From Planctomycetota bacterium (GTDB taxonomy: Bacteria; Planctomycetota; SZUA-567; H5-PLA8): DNA of 22,730 nucleotides. Below the pieces are notes generated by a model. That model made no database searches, was not told the DNA's origin, and saw nothing but the letters and a program-made list of their open reading frames with translations. Below, piece by piece: positions 4,124 to 22,730 of the stretch. The position numbers and the translations under genes are program-made. Numbering within the stretch: the stretch's first letter is position 1; every line of letters begins with the position of its first letter. The stretch is taken from assembly GCA_038227875.1 (NCBI GenBank), contig JBBRPR010000093.1, positions 1 to 22,730 on the forward strand, in the 5' to 3' direction.

Positions 4124-5241
4124 ATAAGTTACTTTGCAACCTCCGCGATTTCTTTGGCGCTCAGTGCGCGGTTGTAGATGCGCAGGTCGTCGAGTTCTCC
4201 TTCGAAGCAATTCTCGCCGAGGTGCGACTGGGCGACGGTCAATGGAATGCCTTTCAGATTGAAATTGCCGCTAACGGTATCGGACTTCTCGCCGTTGAGG
4301 TAGCTGATCAGCGTGGTGCCGTCGAAGGTCATCGCCACATGGGTCCACTTGCCGACTTCCAGTTTGGGGCTTAGTTGCGGTCCGCCCCAGGTACCGAAGG
4401 CGGTGCCGCCGGCGGGGTTGATCAGCCAATGGTGGCTGCCATCGCCCTCTCCACCCAGCAGCAGCAGCCACGCGCGCGTCTCCGGCAGTTTAGCGATCTT
4501 GATCCATGCCATGATGGTGTGTGGCGTATTTCCGGGGGTGAGTCCGTTGATGCTGGCGACACTCGCTCCGCTGTTGGAGCCCGCGGGGAAGGAGAGAGCG
4601 CCGTTGCTTCGGCCTTCAACCCAGGCGATTCTGCCGTTCAGCGTTCCGTCATTCAGATTCTCCGAAGCGTCTTCGGCGGTGGAGCCCATCCAATCTTTAA
4701 GTTTCCAAGACAACACGACGTCGCCGCCGGATTTGAGCGGCGCCGGGTTTTCAGACACCGTAAACGTCAGCGACTCACTGCGCGGCTCGCCCTGATCGAC
4801 CGGAAAGCATGGATACGTCAGATTGACGGTGTCGCCGGCTTTCCATGTTTTGTCGGTGGTCAGAATCACGCCGGTCGGAACGAGTTTGACATTCGTCACA
4901 GCCGCGCCGGAGATAGCATAGGTGGAAACCGCAGTCCAGATTTTGTGATCGAGGGAAGCTTTGCATTGCAGCTCGATCGTGTTGGCCTCGCATTTTGTGC
5001 ATTTAAGAACGCGCGCGGCACTCCAGCTGAACGCGGACACCGGCAGGCCGTTCTTCCCTTTTAGCGAGCCACTCGCTGCATACGAAATTTTGAATGGCGC
5101 GGGGACGTCTTTGATGTCGATGACAAGACTGTCACCGTCGAGCTTCGTCCTGGCCGGTTGGATGCCGGTGCGGCTGATGATCAGAACATCTTTCAAGCCA
5201 TTGGGCCCCAATGAGCCACCGGTCTGTCCGAATTGGAAGGT
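4124..5241 (-). pseudogene. 5'-truncated copy of the 3' 1.1 kb of the 13512..16475 gene (beta-rich stalk plus LamG domain)
   Basis: Colinear, indel-free match to 13507-14624 at constant offset 9383; about 47 mismatches by hand count (~96%). Stop at 4129-4131. No propeller region and no convincing start. Confidence 0.85.
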
Positions 5242-5622: not shown

Positions 5623-6012
5623 CTAGTTTGACGGCGCTATCACTTTCGGAGACATCCTGACTATCACCGTTTTCAACTTCATCGCACAGTCCTCGGAATT
5701 GGGACTATCTGAGCGCAATGCTGCCAGAGCGTGATCGATGGACTTGTCGACCACTGTCCAGGCCGTTTCCGATTTTGGCCGCATTACCACTTCTGCGTTG
5801 TCCCAGGCCGTTTCTAGATCCTTGATCCGCGCTTTGGCGCCGGCCATGTCCTTTTTCTCAACGATTGCCAGCGTGTCCTCGGCAATTTTCTTGAATTCGG
5901 CAAGATCGCCCAGTGCGGCGATGTCGGCACTGGCAGTGGTGGGCTTTTTTGCGGTGGAACAGCCGGCGAGTTGAATCAACACCAACACAGCGAGGATAGG
6001 TTTTTTAAACAT
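5623..6012 (-). CDS. Small helical lipoprotein (129 aa), paralog of 7928..8299
   Basis: MFKKPILAVLVLIQLAGC lipobox. GGAG RBS lies inside the end of secDF, and the ATG is 1 nt after the secDF stop. Motif LGDLxxF...KxLExAWD...WxVVDKxID.AL. Confidence 0.9.
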   Translation of the reverse strand: MFKKPILAVLVLIQLAGCSTAKKPTTASADIAALGDLAEFKKIAEDTLAIVEKKDMAGAKARIKDLETAWDNAEVVMRPKSETAWTVVDKSIDHALAALRSDSPNSEDCAMKLKTVIVRMSPKVIAPSN

Positions 6013-6013
6013 T

Positions 6014-7828
6014 CTATTCTCCAAGAACAGGCGTCGTTACGGATTTCGGCGTGCAAGTAAGGCTGTACCAGATTGGACAAACCAAAAAAATCGACGAATA
6101 CGCACCGCAGATCAATCCCAGCAGGATCGCCAGGGCGAACATTTGTAGCGGTTCGCAACCGAGGAAAAGCAACGATGCGGACGCGGCCACCACGGTGAGT
6201 ACGGTGTAAAGTGAACGTGACATCGTCTGCCAAATACTCAGGCGAATCACCCGCAGCAAATCCTCGTTTGGCAGCAACGCCCGGTTTTCACGCAGCCGGT
6301 CGAAGATCACGATCTTATCGTTGATTGAGTAGCCCATCACCGTCAGGATCGCCGCGATGAATGTTACGTCTACTTCAAGCTTGAATAACGCGAATAGTCC
6401 CACTACGACCAGGATGTCATGAAGCAGCGCAAGAATGGTTGCCACGCCTGTCTGCCACGAAAACCGCCACGAAATAAAGAGCAGAATTCCCAGTCCCGAA
6501 ATCACGATCGACTGAATCGCCTTCGCGCCCAGTTCGGCCGCCATACCCGGATCGGACGTGTTCTCTTCGAACACTACCTTCGCGCCGTAAACTTTCTTAA
6601 AGGCGTTAACGGCCTGATTCAGGTCATCGGGCGCGAGCACACCGTCGAACCGAGCCGCGACGTGATCATTTTCATTTCCGCCGATCGCCACCGTCGCCGC
6701 CGGCACACCCGCGTCGAGAAAAATCTGTTCGGCCCTTCGCTGATCAATGGTTGCACCGACATCGATGTCCAGCGCGGTGCCGGCCGTGAAATCAATGTCC
6801 CAGTTGAAACCATAAGCGTAGTAGCCCCAGCCGCCGGCGGCCAGGATCGCCAGTGAGAGCCCCGCCGCCCGCCAGCGCGTTTTGACGAAGTCGTAGCGGC
6901 GCTCCGGCGCTTGGTGGAGATTCGGGGGGAAAAATGCGGCCGCGGGAATTGCATTACTGTTCACGAGCAGGTTCAGCAGCCAATGCGACAGAAACACATT
7001 AGTAACCAGGCTAATCGCGATGCTGGCGATCATGCTCAGCGAAAAACCCTGAATCGGGCCGATGCCCACCGCGTAAAGCACGATCAGCGCGATGCTGGCT
7101 GTGATGTTCGCGTCGAGAATTGTGCGCAGCGAGCCTGAAAATCCTGCTGGCACCGCTGCTTGGAGCGCTTTTCCATGCCGCAACTCCTCCTTGATGCGCT
7201 CGAAGGCGATGATGCTCGCGTCGGCGGCCATGCCGATACCCAGCACAAACGCTACGACCGCCGACAACGAGAGCGTCGCATGAATCAGATTGAAGAGCAC
7301 CAGCATCAACCACAGATGCGTCGCCAGCATCAGCACAGAGACGACCCCGGCAAGTCGGTACATCGCGATCATGAACGTCAATACCAGCATCGCGCCGACA
7401 ATACCAGCCGTGAGCGTTTCCTTCAGCGCCGTTGCGCCAAGCACCCCGCCGACTGTCTGCGTGTAACGTTCGACCAGCTTTGCCGGCATCGCTTCCGGTC
7501 CGCTGAGGATTTCGCGGATTTGGTCTTTCGTAGACAATCCCGCGATCTTGATGCGAATGCGATTAGAGCCTTCCAGTGCGATCTCCGGCTCCGCCATACC
7601 CAGCGAATTGGCCCGGCGTTCCAGGATGGCAGCGGCCGCAACAAGTTCCTGGTGCGTTAGTGTTTTGCCGGTGTTGAGCGGTTCGGCCGCGTACAGGATT
7701 TCATAGCCGCCATTGAATTCGAGTCCCAATCGGATGTTTTTAAGTAGTCGCTTCGAACTCAATCCGACTACACAAGTCAACGCTGCTATTGTGAACAGCG
7801 CCAGAATCAGCCTGTTTTTTTCGTGCAT
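6014..7828 (-). CDS. secDF: Fused protein translocase subunit SecDF (604 aa), unusually short
   Basis: AGGAGG RBS 5 nt before ATG 7828. SecD motifs LGLEFNGGYEILY, IGMAADASIIAFERIKEE and TILDANIT; SecF motifs DIDFTAGT, ALLHD, GYSINDKIVIFDRLRE, TMSRS and GAYSSIF; about 12 hydrophobic segments. Confidence 0.92.
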   Translation of the reverse strand: MHEKNRLILALFTIAALTCVVGLSSKRLLKNIRLGLEFNGGYEILYAAEPLNTGKTLTHQELVAAAAILERRANSLGMAEPEIALEGSNRIRIKIAGLSTKDQIREILSGPEAMPAKLVERYTQTVGGVLGATALKETLTAGIVGAMLVLTFMIAMYRLAGVVSVLMLATHLWLMLVLFNLIHATLSLSAVVAFVLGIGMAADASIIAFERIKEELRHGKALQAAVPAGFSGSLRTILDANITASIALIVLYAVGIGPIQGFSLSMIASIAISLVTNVFLSHWLLNLLVNSNAIPAAAFFPPNLHQAPERRYDFVKTRWRAAGLSLAILAAGGWGYYAYGFNWDIDFTAGTALDIDVGATIDQRRAEQIFLDAGVPAATVAIGGNENDHVAARFDGVLAPDDLNQAVNAFKKVYGAKVVFEENTSDPGMAAELGAKAIQSIVISGLGILLFISWRFSWQTGVATILALLHDILVVVGLFALFKLEVDVTFIAAILTVMGYSINDKIVIFDRLRENRALLPNEDLLRVIRLSIWQTMSRSLYTVLTVVAASASLLFLGCEPLQMFALAILLGLICGAYSSIFLVCPIWYSLTCTPKSVTTPVLGE

Positions 7829-7927
7829 CAATGCCTCCTACGATTTGAGACACGAAAAATGTAGCGATCTTCGAAAATTAGGTGGGAACTTGACCTTTAG
7901 TTAGGGTGTCAAAGTAACCGCTAAAAA

Positions 7928-8299
7928 TCACTTTTTTGAGGGCGTGCAGATATCGATGACCGCTTGGATTGCGTCCTTGCACTTGGTAGAATCGGTCTTG
8001 TCGGCGCGCACGGCGAACAACGCTTTGTCGATCAATTTGTCGACCACGCTCCACGGCGCCGCTGCCTTTTTCTTGAGCGTACCCTCGGACGCGTCCCACG
8101 CCGATTCCAATTCTTTCATTTTCGCCTTAGCTTCCTTCATGTCGTCGTCGTTCACGGCCTTGAGCGCCGCGTCGGCCGACGATTTGAACGCCGAGAGATC
8201 GCCAAGTGCTGAGACGTCCGTATCAGCGGCGATTGCGCCTCGGACCAGGCCCAGTGAAACCACGGCAGCAAGAGTGGCAATACAAATCATGCGCGTCAT
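7928..8299 (-). CDS. Small secreted helical protein (123 aa), paralog of 5623..6012
   Basis: GGAGG RBS 7 nt before ATG 8299; Sec signal ending AIA-A. Gapless alignment with the lipoprotein, 41/93 identities by hand. Confidence 0.9.
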   Translation of the reverse strand: MTRMICIATLAAVVSLGLVRGAIAADTDVSALGDLSAFKSSADAALKAVNDDDMKEAKAKMKELESAWDASEGTLKKKAAAPWSVVDKLIDKALFAVRADKTDSTKCKDAIQAVIDICTPSKK

Positions 8300-8691
8300 T
8301 GGCAATCCTCCACGAGAGTTGCGAAAATATTAATCTTCGCGTTGGACGAATACCATCCTCCTCATCCTCTATGAAGAAAGTGTAATAATTTCGGGTACCA
8401 CTTTAACGAGTTTGAGGTGAAATAAATAGTAAAATTGAAACTGTACTATGAACTGAGTTATCGTCGCTTGAATCAAACAAGTCTGCGGTTTTTAGCCGCA
8501 CTCATTCCTCGGTATTCATTCCATGGACCAGTGAGATTGGCGTATTCATAGACGTGAGCTTTTGGCCCAGGTCGGCGCAGTTTGGTAGGAGTGGGCCATC
8601 GACCGGATTTGCGTAACCCACTATCGAATCTAGTCTTTACATTAGCCAGTAGTAGTGGTGTGAGTCCTTGAGAAACGAGGAATTCAGTTAG

Positions 8692-8789
8692 CAGCCCGTT
8701 GAAAAAGGATTCTTCCGGCAATTTTCTCCGTGAAACGCCTGGCAGTAAAGGCGTTTCACGGCGCAGTACGAGGGATTATCAACGGGCTG
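8692..8789. mobile_element. MITE copy 2 (98 bp), IS1182/IS5-type ends
   Basis: CAGCCCGTTGAAAAA...ATTATCAACGGGCTG, with TTAG on both flanks (8688-8691, 8790-8793). Perfect 13-bp internal stem CCGTGAAACGCCT-N8-AGGCGTTTCACGG. Confidence 0.88.
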
Positions 8790-8984
8790 TTAGGGTTCCC
8801 TGGGGCGTTCTCGGCGGACTCCCGCCAAATCAGCCACCGCGCCCCGAACGACCTCACCTACTGAAATGCGATGTGCGGACGCGTATTGTCTTATCCATGC
8901 GTATTCGTGGGCAGAAATACGGAAATGAATAATTGCGTTTAACGCCGACGCTCCGAGCGGTTTTCGGCCAGCTTTTTGTTTCAT
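8790..8984 (-). CDS. Small basic protein (64 aa), possibly ribbon-helix-helix (CopG/MobC-like) DNA-binding protein
   Basis: GAGGG before ATG 8984. GRKP leader, strand-like IIHFRIS, then two helices (AHEYAWIRQYASAH, ISVGEVVRGAVAD). The stop is the TAA within the MITE flank. Confidence 0.5.
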   Translation of the reverse strand: MKQKAGRKPLGASALNAIIHFRISAHEYAWIRQYASAHRISVGEVVRGAVADLAGVRRERPREP

Positions 8985-9220
8985 TCGGGTTAACCCTCTG
9001 TTGAAAAACGCAGAAATGAAAAACTTATTAGGGCCGGTGGAGGCTTTTGCGTGAACGTGAGAATACTCAAGTGTACCGCGCTCAATATTCAGGAAAGGAG
9101 AGCAGATATCGTTGAAGAATACTTTCACGACCACTATTATGTACCACCGTAATGAACAACATTGGAGCTGGATTCCTACGCAACCCTGCCGATGAATGAG
9201 TTGGATGACAAGAGATTTAC

Positions 9221-9502
9221 ATGACAATCCAGCCAAGCAGCGACAATTCCAACTCAAAAACGGTTCAAGCTCCCATCGCCCCGGCGGCCCCGGCCCCGAC
9301 CGATTCTAAGCGGGAGGTTGCGAGTCCAGAAGGCAAAGTGCGGGCGGATTTGCTGGAGCTTTCACCCGCAGCACAAAAACTCGTGCAGAGTGGAAACGGT
9401 CCCACCCCACAGCAGGCCCAACAACTGGCCGCGCTGTACGCGTCGGCCAGAGGAATGGTTATGGTTACCGGCCAATGGCGGAAATCAACGCTTCCGGCGT
9501 GA
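9221..9502 (+). CDS. Hypothetical low-complexity protein with FlgM-like DxxELSxxAxxL motif
   Basis: Pro/Ala/Ser-rich N-terminus, then ADLLELSPAAQKL. The 3' end overlaps the convergent receiver gene by 38 bp, so it may be truncated. Confidence 0.4.
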   Translation: MTIQPSSDNSNSKTVQAPIAPAAPAPTDSKREVASPEGKVRADLLELSPAAQKLVQSGNGPTPQQAQQLAALYASARGMVMVTGQWRKSTLPA

Positions 9503-9815
9503 ATGGCTTCCGGACAAATGTGACTATATTCAGAAAATCGGCGCGTGCTTCCGCGATGTTGCTGGCTGTCGTCAATATGATTCGAGTTTTCGGCGATTGC
9601 TCACGTATCTGTTGACAGAATGAAAACGCACTCGTCCCCGGCATCATGTAATCCATGACGATCACGTCCACGTCCATATCCAAAAGCATGGCTAGCGCCT
9701 TGTCTCGATTCTCCGCGACTTGAACGTGATAGCCCTCCACCCGCAAAATCAGAGCGGTAATTTCCCGGCTGTCACGGTCGTCTTCGATGACTAGAAATCG
9801 CGTTGCTTGAGACAT
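9465..9815 (-). CDS. Single-domain response regulator (CheY-like receiver, 116 aa)
   Basis: FLVIEDD, VIVMDYMMPG (phospho-Asp), IILTT and FVRKPF. Start moved to ATG 9815 so it does not overlap the kinase. Confidence 0.9.
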   Translation of the reverse strand: MSQATRFLVIEDDRDSREITALILRVEGYHVQVAENRDKALAMLLDMDVDVIVMDYMMPGTSAFSFCQQIREQSPKTRIILTTASNIAEARADFLNIVTFVRKPFTPEALISAIGR

Positions 9816-9873
9816 GGATGATTGCACTCCCACGTGACAAATCTGTTGAAGGTCCTTTCGAACACGGTCGCGC

Positions 9874-10989
9874 TCACTGCGCACTCGCGCGGCCCACCCC
9901 CTGCTTCTTCGGCAACACCACAATAAAATCCGTCCCTTTAGCTTCTGAACTTTCGATTCGAACTGTTCCGTGATGCGCAGCAACCATTCCGCTTACCAAC
10001 GCCAGGCCCAGACCCCATCCCGAATTGCTGGTGGCGTTGGAAGCCCGCAGAAATCTTTCGAACAACGTCGGCTGGATTTCGATTGGAATCGGGTTCCCTT
10101 CATTGTGAATTGTGAATCCTGCCTGGATCGCATCTTGCGTCAGCGTCACGAGGACCGGGGAATCTTGATTTCCGTATTTCAATGCATTGATGATCAGATT
10201 CTCCAGCACGCGGCGCAGGCCAGGACGGTTCCAGGCGCCACTCGTCGGCTCATCGGCGTTGAGTTCAAATCTGCTCCCATAGGTTTCCTTCATTTCCCGG
10301 ACTACATCCTTAATCAATTCGTCAAGGCGCATCTCTTCGAACTCAAAATCGATTCCCATGCCTGCGCGGATGCGGCTTACGTCCAGCAGTTCCTTGAGCA
10401 TCGAATCTAGACGCTCCATCGTGGTGTCGATTTTTCCGGCGGCTTTCAGCGCGCTTGCCGATACCGACGGATCTCGCTGGATGGCATACACCCACATCCT
10501 CGCGACAGAAATCGGCGCACGCAGATCGTGCACGAGCGTCAGCGAAAAGTGCTCCTGGATTTCGTTCTGTACATCGGCAAATCGCACCGCGACGTCACTC
10601 ACCGTCTGGTCGAATATATCCAGGATCAGATTCCGGTCCGTGATCGGCAACGGTCCATCGCTTTCCAGCACCTTCAGTGCGACGTCGCGCATAATCTGGA
10701 ACTCACGCACGATTTCGGCCAGCGTGTAACTCAGCGGTACACGGCTCTGCTGATGCAGCCTGGCGAATTTCAGCGCGCTGGCACGGTCTTCCGCCACTTG
10801 GTACCGCGTCCTGTTGATCGAATTGTCGAGAGCGAAAACAAGCTGGTCGAGGAACGATTGAAAATGATCCTTCATCAACAGCGACGTCACTCCCCAGGAC
10901 GAGGGGATCTCCTGGTGAGCACGCACTTCCCAATCGGCAAGAATTTTGGGCGAAACACGTCTTAACTTTTCTGAAGTCTGCTTTGACAC
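9874..10989 (-). CDS. Cytoplasmic sensor histidine kinase (helical RsbRD_N-like N-domain, HisKA, HATPase_c)
   Basis: GGAGGAG RBS with GTG start. H-box LVHDLRAPIS, N-box ENLIINALKY, G1 variant IHNEGNPI, F-box LFERF, G2 GWGLGL. No transmembrane segment. N-domain identity is inference. Confidence 0.92.
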   Translation of the reverse strand: MSKQTSEKLRRVSPKILADWEVRAHQEIPSSWGVTSLLMKDHFQSFLDQLVFALDNSINRTRYQVAEDRASALKFARLHQQSRVPLSYTLAEIVREFQIMRDVALKVLESDGPLPITDRNLILDIFDQTVSDVAVRFADVQNEIQEHFSLTLVHDLRAPISVARMWVYAIQRDPSVSASALKAAGKIDTTMERLDSMLKELLDVSRIRAGMGIDFEFEEMRLDELIKDVVREMKETYGSRFELNADEPTSGAWNRPGLRRVLENLIINALKYGNQDSPVLVTLTQDAIQAGFTIHNEGNPIPIEIQPTLFERFLRASNATSNSGWGLGLALVSGMVAAHHGTVRIESSEAKGTDFIVVLPKKQGVGRASAQ

Positions 10990-13485: not shown

Positions 13486-13511
13486 GTCGCGGGCCCAGGC
13501 GGCTCTATAAG

Positions 13512-16475
13512 TTACTTTGCAATCTCCGCGATTTCTTTGGCGCTCAGTGCGCGGTTGTAGATGCGCAGGTCGTCGAGTTCTCCTTCGAAACAATTCTCGC
13601 CGAGGTGGGACTGGGCGACGGTTAACGGGATACCTTTCAGATTGAAATTGCCGCTAACGGTATCGGACTTCTCGCCGTTGAGGTAGCTGATCAGCGTGGT
13701 GCCGTCGAAGGTCATCGCCACATGGGTCCACTTGCCGACTTCCAGTTTGAGGCTTAGTTGCGGTCCGCCCCAGGCACCGAAGGCGGTGCCGCCAGCGGGG
13801 TTGATCAGCCAATGGTGGCTGCCGTCGCCCTCTGCACCCAGCAGCAGCAGCCACGCGCGCTTCTCCGGCAATTTGGCGATCTTGATCCATGCCATGATGG
13901 TGTGTGGCATATTTCCGGGGGAGAGTCCGTTGATGCTGGCGACGCTCGCTCCGCTGTTGGAGCCCGCGGGAAAGGAAAGAGCGCCGTTGCTTCGGCCTTC
14001 AACCCAGGCGATTCTGCCGTTTAGCGTTCCGTCGTTCAGATTATCCGAAGCGTCTTCAGCGGTGGAGCCCATCCAATCTTTAAGTTTCCAAGACAGCACA
14101 ACGTCGCCGCCGGACTTGAGCTGCGCCGGGTTTTCAGACACCGTGAACTTCAGTGACTCACCGCGCGGCTCGCCCTGATCGACGGGAAAGCACGGATACG
14201 TCAGATTGACGGTGTCGCCGGCTTTCCATGTTTTGTCGGTGGTCAGAATCACGCCGGTCGGAACGAGTTTTACATTCGTCACGGCCGCGCCGGAGATGAC
14301 ATAGGTGGAAATCTCAGACCAGATTCTGTGATCGAGGGAAGCTTTGCATTGCAGCTCGATCGTGTTGGCCTCGCATTTTGTGCATTTAAGAACGCGCGCG
14401 GCACTCCAGCGGAACGCGGACACCGGCAGGTCGTTCTTACCTTTTAGCGAGCCACTCGCTGCATACGAAATTTTGAATGGTGCGGGCACGTCTTTGATGT
14501 CGATGACAAGACTGTCACCGTCGAGCTTCGTCCTGGCCGGTTGGATGCCGGTGCGGCTGATGATCAGAACATCTTTCAAGCCATTGGGCCCCAATGAGCC
14601 ACCGGTCTGTCCGAATTGGAAGGTGAGCGTGTCTTTTTTCGTGATCACGTCTTTCACGTAAACGTGGTGTTCCTGCAGATCGTAGCAGGCTATGCCCATC
14701 TCCGTGCGCAAGAACAGCTTGCCATTGGCCAGCGCCATCGGCGCCCAAGGAACGACGCCGGGATCGAAAGTGCCGAGCGGAATGCACTTTTCCGGCGTCG
14801 CACTCACCATCGCGATTTTGTAGTCCTCCATCAAATAGTCGCCAAAGCCTTTGCCGACCGCCATGAGGATTTTTCCGTCGGCGAGGATCGAGGGCGTGTT
14901 TTCGGCGAAGTACGCATTGCCGTATTGCCAATTCAATGCGCCGGTCTTCAAATCAAAGCAGCACAAGCCGCCGATCTTCTGACGGCTGCCTTCGATACCG
15001 TTGACCAATTGGTATAGATGATCCTGATGGATCACCTGGTTGGCGTTGAATAGCGTGGTGGGAGAACATTCGGCTAGCGCGGCGACGGGCTGCAATTCCT
15101 GTTGCGTCATTGTGTAGATCTTACCCTCCGAGACGAACGCATTGCCATCGCGGCGACTGGCAAAATTGACCAGGGAGAATCCGCTGTTTTTGTACTTCAA
15201 TGTCCACGAGTCTTTGCCTGTTTCCAGGTCCATGCAGAAAATCGAATTCGTGGCGGCGCCGTCGCTGGCGATGATGCAGGTCTTTCCGCCGGAGGTCCAC
15301 AGCGACGGCGAGGTATTGCGGCCCCAATCATTCCAGCCCTTGTTGCTATCGCTTTTCCACACTGGCGTTTTCCAGAGCACCTTGCCGGTGTCGGCCTGAT
15401 ACGCCACGCCGCAATAGTAGACCACGCCATTGGCAACCAATACAGAGACGTGTTCGACGCCGCACTTGGACTGCCAGAGTACTGCGCCGTCTTTCGCGGA
15501 AAGACAATATAAGCCGCCGGCGCCGACAAAATAACATTTGCCGTTCCACACCGCCGGCGAACCGCAGAGGCCCAGAATGTCCGCCGTCCCGATGTAAATG
15601 TTTTTCAGTTTTTGAAGGGACTCGGCATCGAGCGGAAACTCCTTTTTCCAGAGCAACTTGCCGGTCGACGCGTCGAGGCAGACGAGCAGATCCAACTTCG
15701 TAAAGCTGCGCCGCCACGCGCTTTCCAGAATAGCCGAATTGTTAAAATGACGGTCGAGCGCGTTTTCCCATTTGAGTTCCTTTGGAAGTTGCGCCACACA
15801 TTCCCGCAAACTTACATAACCACCGGGTTTCAACTTGCTCAGTTTGACCAGATGTTCCCACGGTAGGCCGGTGGGCATACACAGTCGCCGGCGAATGAAA
15901 TCGCCATACTTCGCCGCCTCCGCTGGAGGCAATGTCGCGACGAAATCCTTGATGTACTTGTCCAACTCCGGTTGCTTGGACAGGTATTCGATCAGCTCCT
16001 TATCCTTTTCTTTCAGGTCTTTGGGATCCAGCCATTGCCAACCCGGAGCAGCGGGGCGGTCTTTGGCCGTACGCGCGACTTCGATTTTCTGGATCAGTTC
16101 TTCCGGCACGTCGCTGCGCCAACCCGCGCTTTCCAGAAATTCCGTCGAGAAGATGTTGTAGCGGTCGCCGCCGCCCACAGGTTGCTTGGCCGTCGCATAC
16201 ACGAACACTTTGCCGTCCGCCACCACCGGACCGCTGCAGCCGCCCTGGTACCAGCCGGGAATCCGTTCGCTCTTCCAGGCCAGCGGCGGACCTTCCTCCG
16301 GCCACGTGTCCAGCAATTTGGGGCTGTAAACTGCGATGCTGTCCCGATTCGGTCCACGGTACTGCGGCCAGTCGCTGTTCGTTTCGTTGGTCGCAGACTC
16401 CTGTGGTGGCGCTACGGCGGATAGCGCGCGCGTTGCCACCAAGCAGAGTAACAACACGAGCGGCAATCGCGTCAT
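13512..16475 (-). CDS. Secreted PQQ-binding-like beta-propeller protein with helical insert, beta-rich stalk and C-terminal LamG/ConA-like domain (987 aa)
   Basis: GAGGAG RBS and signal peptide. Propeller motifs DWPQYRGPNRD, CLDASTGKLLW and MALANGKLFLR...CYDL. LamG motifs TIMAWIK, GKWTHVAMTFDG..LISYLNG and FEGELDDLRIYNRALS..EI. Confidence 0.93.
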   Translation of the reverse strand: MTRLPLVLLLCLVATRALSAVAPPQESATNETNSDWPQYRGPNRDSIAVYSPKLLDTWPEEGPPLAWKSERIPGWYQGGCSGPVVADGKVFVYATAKQPVGGGDRYNIFSTEFLESAGWRSDVPEELIQKIEVARTAKDRPAAPGWQWLDPKDLKEKDKELIEYLSKQPELDKYIKDFVATLPPAEAAKYGDFIRRRLCMPTGLPWEHLVKLSKLKPGGYVSLRECVAQLPKELKWENALDRHFNNSAILESAWRRSFTKLDLLVCLDASTGKLLWKKEFPLDAESLQKLKNIYIGTADILGLCGSPAVWNGKCYFVGAGGLYCLSAKDGAVLWQSKCGVEHVSVLVANGVVYYCGVAYQADTGKVLWKTPVWKSDSNKGWNDWGRNTSPSLWTSGGKTCIIASDGAATNSIFCMDLETGKDSWTLKYKNSGFSLVNFASRRDGNAFVSEGKIYTMTQQELQPVAALAECSPTTLFNANQVIHQDHLYQLVNGIEGSRQKIGGLCCFDLKTGALNWQYGNAYFAENTPSILADGKILMAVGKGFGDYLMEDYKIAMVSATPEKCIPLGTFDPGVVPWAPMALANGKLFLRTEMGIACYDLQEHHVYVKDVITKKDTLTFQFGQTGGSLGPNGLKDVLIISRTGIQPARTKLDGDSLVIDIKDVPAPFKISYAASGSLKGKNDLPVSAFRWSAARVLKCTKCEANTIELQCKASLDHRIWSEISTYVISGAAVTNVKLVPTGVILTTDKTWKAGDTVNLTYPCFPVDQGEPRGESLKFTVSENPAQLKSGGDVVLSWKLKDWMGSTAEDASDNLNDGTLNGRIAWVEGRSNGALSFPAGSNSGASVASINGLSPGNMPHTIMAWIKIAKLPEKRAWLLLLGAEGDGSHHWLINPAGGTAFGAWGGPQLSLKLEVGKWTHVAMTFDGTTLISYLNGEKSDTVSGNFNLKGIPLTVAQSHLGENCFEGELDDLRIYNRALSAKEIAEIAK

Positions 16476-21999: not shown

Positions 22000-22321
22000 T
22001 CTAAATTCCTATGGCGGGCTAAAGAGCGGTCCGCTGTGGGCGGTGCGGAGACCGTCCCCGCCCTCGCCCGCCTACCTATTTTTGTTTTAATGTGAACACG
22101 CGCTCGTTTGAATCAATTCGTGCGACTGTCAACCTATTCACAATTCTGCTAACACCGCTGTTGTCCGCATGGGCGATGCGTTGGCCTGCTCGGCCATGGA
22201 GCGCACGCTCGGCAGCGTCTTTACGCTGCCGCAATGCACCAAACAGGGGCGTTGCAAATGCGGACGAAATCCATCTGGTCGGATAAACCTCGCTCCCTCG
22301 AAACAGTAAGGGGACCCATAA

Positions 22322-22730
22322 CAGCCCGTTGAAGAATCATCATTTGCGTTCAAGTTACGCGGCCGGTTGTTGTCGCAACCCAGGCCCGTTGCTTGACGGC
22401 GCGGAGTGGCGAGTTGTCGCAAAGGGCCATTCCCAGACACCCCCAACTTCAATAGCGCGAAAAAGAGCAAAAACGGTGGCTTTAACGGCTCGCTGATATA
22501 CGTTCGAATTTCGGCGTCTGCGTGTGTCGTCAATACTTCATTGCTGTGATAGCCCTTGTCCGTCACCACCGCTTCTACGTACGGGTTGGTTTTTTTCTCG
22601 TACCGCGGATCTTGCGCCAGTTCCTCTAAATTCTCCGTGGCCTGCGTGACCGTCTGATAGATCGTCGTGGTGTCGCCCAAATCCGCATGTTGCAACGTTA
22701 CCGCGAGCACCGCGCCCGAATCCATGTCCA
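22322..22730 (-). mobile_element. Right part of an IS1182/IS5-like element with an internally deleted transposase
   Basis: DSGAVLAVTLQHADLGDTTT...VVTDKGYHSN...IRTYISEP, then an abrupt jump to a tail ending SSTGC that runs through the terminal repeat TTCTTCAACGGGCTG (22322-22336). Confidence 0.85.

Follow-up and report, generated by a model that had tools for sequence, protein, structure and literature searches.

A headless accessory SecDF between two MmfD-family proteins: a candidate mmf-type envelope cation-stress module built on SecDF in a Planctomycetota genome

The genome of a Planctomycetota bacterium (GCA_038227875.1) carries a three-gene unit in which an accessory SecDF without its periplasmic P1 head is flanked by two small exported proteins of the MmfD family, and we propose, at roughly even odds, that the unit is a SecDF-based variant of an mmf-type envelope cation-stress module. 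In the usual view SecDF has a single purpose, to assist the Sec translocon, and the P1 head is thought to pull on proteins. The two small proteins belong to a helical family for which the only description to date is that of mmfD, an uncharacterised gene of metal-induced bacterial clusters. The stretch of DNA analysed here, referred to as the window, comprises 22,730 nucleotides of the contig JBBRPR010000093.1.

The three genes are co-oriented on the minus strand, in open reading frames at 7928-8305, 6014-7831 and 5623-6024, and their likely starts were read from the sequence. The first gene, hpA (7928..8299), likely starts at the ATG at 8299 behind the ribosome-binding site GGAGGA and encodes a 123-aa exported protein, whose Sec-type signal peptide would by inspection be cleaved after …GAIA (GAIA/AD). 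The accessory secDF (6014..7828) likely starts at the ATG at 7828 and encodes 604 aa, while hpB (5623..6012), with a likely ATG at 6012, encodes a 129-aa lipoprotein with the lipobox LAG/C (by inspection). The secDF stop codon lies at 6014-6016, which leaves 1 nt between secDF and hpB. Both the frames and the starts agree with the initial annotation, which had described an exported helical protein, a 604-aa SecDF and a lipoprotein 1 nt past the secDF stop. It had also aligned the two small proteins without gaps at 41 identical positions of 93, a count that proved exact; over the mature regions 41 of 98 positions are identical, a value reached by none of 2000 shuffles, and BLASTP pairs the two proteins with 48/124 identities at E 2e-24. 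The motifs AWD and W(S/T)VVDK(L/S)ID (given there as WxVVDKxID), together with one aligned Cys, are all present in both. That hpA, secDF and hpB constitute one unit is the best explanation.

The 604-aa SecDF is headless. Two stretches of it match the Pfam family PF02355 (SecD_SecF_C, E 1e-58), so both six-helix SecD/SecF halves are present, and residues 66-110 match PF21760 (SecD_1st, E 8e-10), which corresponds to the P1 base. The head family PF22599 (SecDF_P1_head) has no match in this protein, whereas the canonical paralogue of the same genome matches it at E 3.8e-30. In the alignment with Thermus thermophilus SecDF (3AQP), residues 31-112 correspond to 31-109 and residues 96-587 to 229-719, and residues ~110-228 of 3AQP, that is, the P1 head of about 120 residues, are skipped, as the initial annotation had suspected. 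The P4 domain is kept, since it is covered by the continuous alignment to 229-719. D204, D505 and R539 align with D340, D637 and R671 of 3AQP, which reportedly form the proton relay of the T. thermophilus protein in work by Tsukazaki in 2011 and Furukawa in 2017. Among 119 family members, R539 is R in all 119, D204 is D in 103 and D505 is D or E in 106, and the P1 region is 109-116 aa long throughout. The headless SecDF is probably active as a proton-driven protein.

The family models give the same picture of a SecDF core. The SecF model TIGR00966 scores 307 bits (cut-off 160) and the SecD model TIGR01129 scores 249 bits (cut-off 244.4), while all the listed fused-SecDF equivalog models of NCBIfam stay below their cut-offs, including the best of them for full-length SecDF, NF009581, with 493 bits against a cut-off of 1058. 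There is only a local MMPL match (E 1.4e-5) and no ACR_tran match, and the ~1000-aa AcrB/CzcA architecture with porter and docking domains is absent; the protein shares the RND superfamily with such efflux pumps only through its SecDF core. With canonical SecDF (3AQP; E. coli SecD/SecF with YajC) it has in common the twelve-helix RND-type core with two SecD_SecF_C halves, the P1 base and P4. The canonical forms differ in having the P1 head and yajC/tgt neighbours; the window copy has neither, and its partners are MmfD-type domains. A YajC/TGT domain search found no yajC or tgt among the large open reading frames of the window, in line with the earlier remark that neither is adjacent.

The window SecDF is an accessory and not the housekeeping copy. 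The initial annotation had put it forward as an accessory protein, and a canonical tgt-yajC-secDF operon was indeed found elsewhere in the genome, on contig C2, encoding a SecDF of 992 aa with the P1 head. The window protein is ~29-30% identical to this canonical SecDF of the same genome and ~48-51% identical to short SecDFs of Pseudomonas. All four of the other genomes with a short SecDF also carry canonical SecD/SecF. Within the phylum, short SecDFs occur in 2 of the 401 genomes sampled, and in none of the 8 from the same family. The headless subfamily, defined at an identity of at least 45%, comprises 119 cluster representatives from Pseudomonas, other Pseudomonadota and this PVC-like genome. 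Sources that name its members call them only 'SecF'. A second short SecDF copy, on contig C1, has lost 1 nt from a TTT run, which shifts its reading frame, and the gene behind it is 71% identical to hpB, so that hpB follows SecDF in both copies; relatives at 84-88% identity are intact full-length proteins.

By sequence comparison, hpA and hpB are homologues of MmfD. In tblastn, hpA matches mmfD of the plasmid pHB44 with 45% identity over residues 32-117 (E 2e-8), and the chromid of Cupriavidus metallidurans CH34 is matched as well. A profile of the family recovers MmfD of pHB44 at E 3e-44, hpA at 2.7e-38 and hpB at 9e-48, and finds 735 cluster representatives at E<=1e-3. Neither Pfam nor NCBIfam has a family for hpA; a Pfam search of 52 helical-family members gave no family in more than 5 of them, with all matches weak, and every cluster that the helical domain retrieved from the ESM Atlas was labelled 'hypothetical protein'. 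The AF2 model of hpA (pLDDT 82.1, and above 90 over residues 31-120) predicts helices at 38-52, 56-72, 74-80, 82-100 and 106-120. Foldseek found no match to the model in the PDB at E<=1e-3, and VIA-align gave generic four-helix bundles (designed Zn cages, PsbQ-like proteins, SMBP, cytochrome b562/c') with Z 8-11.6, values below ~13 being common for helical bundles. A profile search of PDB sequences gave only a weak match to BRIL/cytochrome b562 (E 0.23). The up-down four-helix fold of cytochrome b562 and PsbQ-like bundles is predicted for hpA too, although its family has no conserved His/Met haem ligands, and both hpA and hpB would be four-helix-bundle proteins. An invariant acidic cluster is formed by E67, D71 and E74 on one helix and D89 and D93 on the next (hpA, numbering of the 125-aa ORF).

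Comparison of relatives supports a real functional link between SecDF and the helical domain. The initial annotation had proposed a survey of their co-occurrence, and the two do occur together: 58 of the 120 closest headless SecDFs carry one or two helical (MmfD-type) domains fused at the C-terminus, and the helical domain follows SecDF in 19 of 40 evaluable metagenome loci. Seventeen of the fused forms have one domain, and the other 41 belong to the 771-880-aa class (40 with two domains detected and 1 with one). In 56 of the 58, a hydrophobic 19-aa window stands after the SecDF core and before the helical domain; the fused examples L013 and L023 were read directly. Consequently, the option that the small proteins are dedicated substrates is rejected, because fusion after an additional membrane segment does not suit a substrate. 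In the tree, all 58 fused forms fall within one clade, to which the clade of the window protein is the sister group (support 96); one change suffices to explain the fusion state. A sister clade of 53 equally headless SecDFs has no fused helical domain, and in 18 of the 40 evaluable metagenome loci neither the helical domain nor DUF347 lies downstream of the short SecDF. Therefore, a headless SecDF can work without an MmfD-type partner. Residues specific to the SecDF clade linked to helical domains are densest in P4 (10/29), a pattern that is confounded by phylogeny and is a hint only.

The position of hpA is less common than that of hpB. A helical gene upstream of the short SecDF was found in 1 of the 40 loci, and in the helical-domain tree the closest relative of hpA is the DUF347-adjacent paralogue of the same genome; hpA may therefore be a later addition to the unit. 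This tree, in which 22 of 45 inner branches have support below 80, is too poor to match hpA and hpB to the fused domains 1 and 2.

Then, in what company is the helical family usually found? Of 80 genome loci of the helical family, 76 have DUF347 next to the helical-family gene and 4 have a short SecDF there, so the association with COG4705/DUF347 that the initial annotation had put forward is correct and is the dominant context. A third paralogue in the same genome, on contig C124, also lies beside DUF347 (E 1.2e-55). Among 28 long forms of the helical family, the domain is joined to DUF347 in 16, SecDF in 2 and PepSY in 1, and in a second census of 40 long forms the numbers are 23 for DUF347, 11 for PepSY and 6 for SecDF. 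Histidine kinase clusters occur near helical-family genes in 70 of the 80 loci and response regulators in 56, and in the same-phylum genome G373 a histidine kinase gene is directly upstream of the fused gene. ArnT-like, EptA-like and FTR1/cupredoxin genes are among the neighbours of helical-domain loci, and RND pump or OEP genes neighbour relatives of the module in the genomes G264 and G237, in the latter of which the helical-domain gene sits between a kinase and an efflux operon.

A known relative of this arrangement is the mmf cluster of Tn6048 (C. metallidurans CH34, plasmids pHB44/pBS64), which consists of mmfA (PepSY), mmfB (UppP/PAP2), mmfC1/C2 (DUF347), mmfD (secreted protein) and mmfR/S. 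The cluster is reported to be upregulated by Pb and Zn (PMC12029693), and another paper proposes metal uptake for it (PMC4914505). The 2010 CH34 genome paper describes the mmf genes as strongly induced by Zn and Pb and of unknown function, and a 2025 paper gives only predicted roles for them; the Zn/Pb induction is known only for CH34. The likeness lies in the homology of hpA and hpB to MmfD and in the C124 paralogue, which stands beside DUF347 as mmfD does. In other genomes, short SecDFs lie in rows with PepSY, DUF347 and OmpR-type two-component systems, including PepSY-short SecDF-DUF347 rows in the loci L135 and L137. An OmpR-type two-component system is co-localised with PepSY, DUF347 and PAP2 in L022, L067, L014 and pHB44, a grouping that may be analogous to the BqsRS/CarRS-type regulons of Pseudomonas. 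However, in the window a headless SecDF occupies the position of DUF347, MmfD is represented by two paralogues, of which one is lipid-anchored, and the module has no adjoining equivalents of mmfA, mmfB, mmfR or mmfS and no transposon frame. None of the usual partners (an OmpR-type regulator, as in the BqsRS/CarRS-type regulons, PepSY, PAP2 or DUF347) adjoins the module there; the neighbouring kinase looks soluble and the regulator is receiver-only.

An AT-rich region at 8300..8483 (minus strand) is the presumed promoter region of the unit. No sigma-70-like site was found on its minus strand, and the sigma-54 -24/-12 box has 10 matches in the window against 11.4 expected, none of them upstream of hpA. 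A terminator-like hairpin with a T tail at 8484..8500 (minus strand), a putative end of the transcription unit upstream, is supported only by a match to the consensus, and 5 such matches were found in the region against 6.5 expected. No Rfam family was found in the window. The sequencing runs listed for this stretch are DNA runs only, with no RNA run among them. A dispersed repeat of ~100 nt with inverted ends has one copy at 8689..8796, ~390 nt upstream of hpA, and a second at 615-706; the repeat gives 54 blastn hits genome-wide. The LamG gene adjoining hpB has its 3' end duplicated (1118 nt, 95.8% identical). The initial annotation had placed the cluster among mobile elements, but no significant transposase, integrase or relaxase domain was found in the window, which does contain the dispersed repeat and the LamG 3'-end duplicate; the best matches are DDE_Tnp_1 (E 0.058) in the contig-end ORF 22138-22728 and DUF6290/NikA-like (E 0.0018/0.16) in the ORF 8790-9257. 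Two short 90%-identical stretches of the hpB flank recur on contig C44, which encodes an MmfR-like regulator (46% identity); no link of C44 to the hpA-secDF-hpB module was found.

The reading that we favour, at the even odds given above, starts from an accessory proton-driven membrane protein of the SecDF type (RND superfamily) that has lost its polypeptide-gripping P1 head. The soluble hpA and the lipid-anchored hpB would be its periplasmic subunits, with the helical domains docking on the periplasmic face of SecDF, possibly at P4, and the acidic cluster E67/D71/E74/D89/D93 would bind a cation or a cationic ligand. The complex would spend the proton gradient on an envelope task under metal or cation stress and not on general protein export, as a SecDF-based version of the module in which PepSY, DUF347, MmfD and PAP2 appear to act under an OmpR-type two-component system. 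In favour of this reading are the intact relay residues, the accessory status, the MmfD homology, the fusions of the domain to headless SecDF, DUF347 and PepSY, and the recurrent two-component and envelope-modifying neighbours. A repurposed proton-coupled SecDF is, of the options raised by the initial annotation, the one that fits the evidence best, and its function is what we infer. The putative metal binding is suggested by the conserved acidic residues and the context, and the same residues could equally form a protein interface. Several observations count against it. The usual mmf partners do not adjoin the module, headless SecDFs exist that lack the helical domain, the upstream position of hpA is unusual, and metal uptake has been proposed for mmf. 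Moreover, the residue at +2 after the lipid-bearing Cys of hpB is Ser, which under the E. coli sorting rule would direct a lipoprotein to the outer membrane, so that hpB would go away from SecDF.

Could the short SecDF instead still be an export motor at SecYEG, with the helical proteins or fused domains taking hold of polypeptides as they emerge, perhaps specifically under stress in place of the housekeeping SecDF? We consider this rather unlikely, although it is the strongest of the alternatives. The head is missing, yet the P1 base, P4 and the proton-relay residues are kept; a covalent link keeps the helical domains at the periplasmic side of SecDF in those 58 of 120 relatives; and two domains per SecDF recur, in the 40 fused forms and as two genes in the window. 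Conditionally expressed SecDF paralogues are known, such as Vibrio SecD2/F2 under VemP, and the P1 domain is the substrate binder in the accepted model (PMC6028853). However, the same domain is found far more often on DUF347 or PepSY, which are unrelated to Sec and have no SecDF head to replace, and equally headless SecDFs exist without it (the 53-member clade and the 18 of 40 loci). The invariant surface is acidic, which is unexpected for a site that holds unfolded chains, and the neighbours are metal- and envelope-related, not Sec-related. The earlier suggestion that hpA and hpB stand in for the head in trans is weakened accordingly.

A smaller chance attaches to the helical proteins being periplasmic accessories of signalling, that is, CpxP/ZraP-like modulators or ligand sensors for the histidine kinase, with SecDF and DUF347 merely co-regulated outputs. 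The kinase and OmpR-type regulator beside the domain in most loci fit such a role, as does the G237 gene between a kinase and an efflux operon. However, where the domain is fused to SecDF or DUF347 it follows an additional membrane segment, which ties it to those proteins and not to the kinase; no kinase fusion was found among the 28 and the 40 long forms, and no periplasm-sensing kinase adjoins the module in the window.

It is very improbable that hpA is an export-monitoring leader (an arrest peptide of the VemP or RAPP type) or a dedicated SecDF substrate. V. alginolyticus, too, has an additional SecDF next to its housekeeping copy, the VemP-controlled SecD2/F2, and here as well a gene for a small exported protein lies upstream; the layout of VemP-secD2F2 and of the RAPP/RGPP systems matches that of hpA and secDF (PMC12992588). 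The VemP leader is an arrest peptide and not a conserved folded domain, whereas hpA is predicted with high confidence to be one. It is also homologous to hpB and to the 735 cluster representatives, most of which are not beside SecDF, and no RAPP or RGPP motif occurs in its sequence. The Vibrio SecD2/F2 paralogue is full-length with the P1 head and differs in ion use. Besides, hpA has its own stop codon, a gap of 96 nt separates it from secDF, which has its own ribosome-binding site, and relatives carry the domain as a C-terminal fusion to SecDF. Just as improbable is mere adjacency, in which SecDF would be a duplicate in decay and the helical genes would have come to lie beside it by chance as the region was rearranged: the C1 copy is frameshifted and the flank is a patchwork of duplicated segments, but the window copy is intact with all its relay residues, hpB follows SecDF in both copies, the close relatives are full-length, and the fusions and co-occurrence across phyla argue for function.

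Extending the favoured reading of a SecDF-based cation-stress module, we offer tentatively, and with less confidence than that reading itself, that headless SecDFs with MmfD-type heads, fused or separate, would form a class of their own among RND-superfamily machines, in which the proton motor has moved from export to cation-binding four-helix bundles. At the periplasmic face, the target of such a machine would be metal cations or an envelope lipid modified by a cation, to be moved, sequestered or sensed, and DUF347 would be a membrane partner that either cooperates with it or can take its place in a widespread, unrecognised metal-stress regulon. A literature search that covered mostly journals outside subscription found nothing on headless SecDFs or on their link to MmfD, DUF347 or PepSY. 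There is, then, a coherent subfamily of headless SecDFs, half of whose proteins carry another periplasmic domain instead of the P1 head, and the helical domain connects SecDF with the mmf genes. Through the natural fusions, the roles of MmfD and DUF347 can be approached directly, as can the possible re-use of the SecDF motor beyond protein export and the extent to which SecDF function needs the P1 head.

In the window, three co-oriented genes on the minus strand form a compact unit. As read from the ORFs and the DNA, hpA (ORF 7928-8305) probably starts at the ATG at 8299 behind GGAGGA and encodes a helical protein of 123 aa, the SecDF gene (ORF 6014-7831) probably starts at the ATG at 7828 behind AGGAGG and encodes 604 aa, and hpB (ORF 5623-6024) probably starts at the ATG at 6012 and encodes 129 aa. 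The secDF stop codon occupies 6014-6016, with the hpB ATG one base beyond; the arrangement described in the initial annotation is confirmed. On inspection, a signal peptide of the Sec type is seen in hpA and a lipobox (LAG/C) in hpB. A gapless alignment of these small proteins has 41 identical residues among 93, exactly as counted before; the identity of their mature regions was reached by none of 2000 shuffles, and BLASTP gives an E value of 2e-24. A terminator-like hairpin (8500-8484, minus strand) with an AT-rich stretch parts the hpA unit from the upstream gene. No Rfam family was found in the window, and a search of the window for sigma-54 boxes gave none above chance.

In Pfam the SecDF matches SecD_SecF_C in two places (E 1e-58) and also SecD_1st (E 8e-10), the domain of the P1 base; SecDF_P1_head gave no match. 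In an alignment with the Thermus thermophilus SecDF structure 3AQP, residues 31-112 correspond to 31-109 and residues 96-587 to 229-719, while the approximately 120 residues of 3AQP that form the head are without counterpart. The proton-relay residues of 3AQP, D340, D637 and R671, are matched there by D204, D505 and R539, so that the relay residues are intact in the window protein. It passes the cut-offs of the NCBIfam SecD and SecF domain models and fails by far all full-length SecDF equivalogs listed there (493 bits against a cut-off of 1058). Judged from its sequence, this SecDF is headless but complete in its other parts. In the accepted model the P1 domain binds the emerging chain and moves it off the pore by means of the proton gradient (PMC6028853). 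Consequently, losing the head takes away the proposed working part and leaves the motor.

The window's own genome (9.3 Mb in 176 contigs, 88% complete) has three SecDF-type loci. The canonical one, whose presence elsewhere in the genome had been raised as a check, is on contig C2, where tgt and yajC accompany a SecDF of 992 aa that has the P1 head (PF22599, E 3.8e-30). A second short SecDF, that is, one of the ~600-aa headless type, lies on another contig (C1:297484-299704; L002, L010) and shares 75-87% protein identity with that of the window. Loss of one nucleotide in a TTT run breaks it into ORFs of 221 and 433 aa; this copy is a pseudogene, or else the assembly is wrong here. An hpB-like lipoprotein gene (71% identity) follows, and hpA is absent upstream. 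With the canonical SecDF of its own genome the window SecDF shares only 29-30% identity, against 48-51% with short SecDFs from Pseudomonas and from a deltaproteobacterial MAG. Canonical SecD/SecF also occurs in each of four other genomes bearing a short SecDF. At E<=1e-80, short SecDFs were found in two of 401 sampled genomes of the phylum, the window genome and G373, and in none of eight sampled genomes of the same family. The window SecDF is an accessory copy.

The identity of the helical proteins came from plasmids. A word-index search gave only eight close relatives, none of them named, and Pfam, NCBIfam and Atlas hold no applicable family. With hpA as the tblastn query, a match was obtained on the Variovorax plasmid pHB44 to a gene annotated 'hypothetical protein' between two genes annotated 'membrane protein', and the same gene is matched on the Cupriavidus metallidurans CH34 chromid. 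The plasmid gene is mmfD, 'secreted protein, Tn6048', in the order mmfA (PepSY), mmfB (undecaprenyl-diphosphatase), mmfC1 (DUF347), mmfD, mmfC2 (DUF347), mmfR, mmfS, according to PMC4914505. The pHB44 MmfD matches the helical-family profile with an E value of 3e-44; hpA and hpB are MmfD-family exported proteins. Upregulation of mmf by Pb and Zn is restated in a 2025 paper (PMC12029693), and Pb induction of DUF347-UppP operons in Frankia is described in PMC4531530.

When 1.84 billion representatives were searched with a profile, 735 relatives reached E<=1e-3 (411 of them E<=1e-10), mostly of 100-150 aa, with the consensus LGDLS.F..IA.DTL..V.KGDL..AK.RIKDLETAWD.AE..LKP.....W...DKAID.AL..LR. Across 52 diverse members, E67, W85, D89 and D93 (hpA numbering in the 125-aa ORF) are invariant, and L34, G35, L37, L66, W70, D71, E74 and R100 nearly so. 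The AF2 model is a confident helical bundle (pLDDT 82 overall, >90 over residues 31-120). Fold searches returned no significant relative, only generic up-down four-helix bundles, and a sequence profile search of the PDB only BRIL/cytochrome b562 (E 0.23).

The link between SecDF and the helical domain is real. Among the 120 closest relatives of the window SecDF, all with at least 45% identity, 62 have no helical domain, 17 (701-770 aa) have one, and 41 fall into a class of 771-880 aa, with two domains detected in 40 and one in the other. For example, the fusion in G373, of the same phylum, has 877 aa and its start is overlapped by a histidine kinase gene, and three Pseudomonas genomes encode fused forms of 850-857 aa. 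Of the 58 fused forms, 56 have a hydrophobic 19-residue window beyond the SecDF core. In solved SecDF structures the C-terminus is cytoplasmic, so such a thirteenth segment would place the fused helical domains in the periplasm. Two unfused relatives carry the source names of Thaumarchaeota/Nitrosotalea MAGs. With four canonical rows as the root, a FastTree phylogeny places the 119 short SecDFs that it covers in a single clade (support 100), which divides into 53 unfused members and a clade of 66 (support 96). Within the latter, the window's group of five is sister to three unfused and all 58 fused forms, and one change of fusion state suffices.

A metagenome scan yielded 57 short-SecDF loci, 40 of them judgeable downstream, where the helical domain follows in 19 (17 in the SecDF frame), DUF347 only in three and neither in 18; the helical domain lies upstream in one of the 40. 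PepSY, short SecDF and DUF347 stand in a row at two loci (L135, L137). Seven metagenome loci (L125, L128-L131, L138, L153) belong to a sister clade whose SecDFs (~605 aa) are just as headless and have neither a helical domain nor DUF347 nearby; their contigs carry small regulators with N-terminal sequences like …IYEFIKNNPGAHLR….

DUF347 is the most frequent neighbor. It adjoins the helical domain at 76 of the 80 genome loci from the helical-domain alignment (258 relatives in all), which bears out the link given in the initial annotation. One case is a third paralogue in the window's own genome (C124:2058-3752; L009): 55% identical to hpA, it immediately precedes the sole DUF347 gene there (four repeats, E 1.2e-55). 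No PepSY, PAP2 or two-component system is near this mmfD-mmfC-like pair. A short SecDF occurs at four of the 80 loci, one of which (L028) has DUF347 as well; at the sole locus with neither, the contig ends 211 nt upstream of the match. Among long forms of the family, a first set of 28 comprised 16 with DUF347, two with SecDF, one each with PepSY and an enolase-like domain, two with weak matches only and six with nothing, and a second census of 40 gave DUF347 in 23, PepSY in 11 and SecDF in six. A third partner for fusion is PepSY, itself encoded among the mmf genes; the recurrent fusion protein of ~282-288 aa (P0286-P0297, P0056) is called 'uncharacterized membrane protein YkoI' by one source. 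Elsewhere in the phylum, an RND pump of the AcrB/CzcA type is immediately followed by a two-domain helical lipoprotein (G264:C2, L015), a histidine kinase and an outer-membrane efflux protein flank a single-domain helical protein (G237:C127, L016), and a DUF347 fusion is located beside PAP2 and PepSY-like genes (G394).

Kinase clusters are present at 70 and OmpR-type regulator clusters at 56 of the 80 genome loci. At Pseudomonas DUF347 loci the regulators are 77% identical to MmfR and the kinases 65% to MmfS; where the domain is fused to SecDF in Pseudomonas, a divergent regulator and kinase accompany ArnT-like (PMT_2) or EptA-like (Sulfatase) genes, and one such locus has FTR1 and a cupredoxin. 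An OmpR-type two-component system was also seen beside PepSY, DUF347 and PAP2 genes (L022, L067, L014 and pHB44). The helical domain has a recurrent two-component, metal and envelope neighborhood.

As for the window itself, a kinase (371 aa, no obvious membrane segments) and a receiver-only regulator are encoded at 9465-10989; the ORFs as listed overlap by 110 nt, and the regulator probably has a later start at MSQATRFLVIEDD…. Further upstream are a sigma-54 activator and another of the window's receiver proteins. The window also encodes an AraC regulator and three large beta-propeller proteins of the PQQ_2 type, one of which ends in a LamG domain. The unit had been said to sit among mobile elements, but no mobile-element protein domain is significant in the window. 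The DNA adjoining hpB is a patchwork: 4124-5241 is a 1118-nt, 95.8% identical duplicate of 13507-14624, the 3'-terminal part of the gene for the 987-aa PQQ_2/LamG protein, and makes up the fragmentary 360-aa LamG-domain ORF next to hpB; similarity ends abruptly at 5241, and beyond it come two short segments with 90% identity to contig C44. A ~100-nt dispersed repeat with inverted ends (…TAGCAGCCCGTTGA / TCAACGGGCTGCTA…), located at 8689-8796 (390 nt upstream of hpA) and 615-706, has 54 blastn matches genome-wide (75-92% identity) and may be a MITE- or REP-like element.

In other organisms, then, the helical domain is covalently coupled to headless SecDFs, DUF347 and PepSY. In the reading favored here, hpA and hpB would be periplasmic SecDF subunits, with the lipid anchor of hpB in the role that the thirteenth helix has in the fused forms; the invariant acidic cluster may bind a cation, and the complex would work on the envelope under cation stress and not in general export. 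Some observations count against this: the window has no mmf gene other than the MmfD homologues, its nearby kinase and regulator are of another kind, many headless SecDFs are without a helical partner, and hpA is unusual in its upstream position and has the DUF347-linked paralogue as its nearest relative. That the helical proteins replace the missing P1 head in trans is possible, but is weakened by the promiscuity of the domain and by its acidic surface. The suggestion that they are dedicated substrates, and that of hpA as an arrest-peptide leader, do not fit: the domain is a conserved folded unit that occurs fused to SecDF C-termini, and it has no RAPP/RGPP motif.
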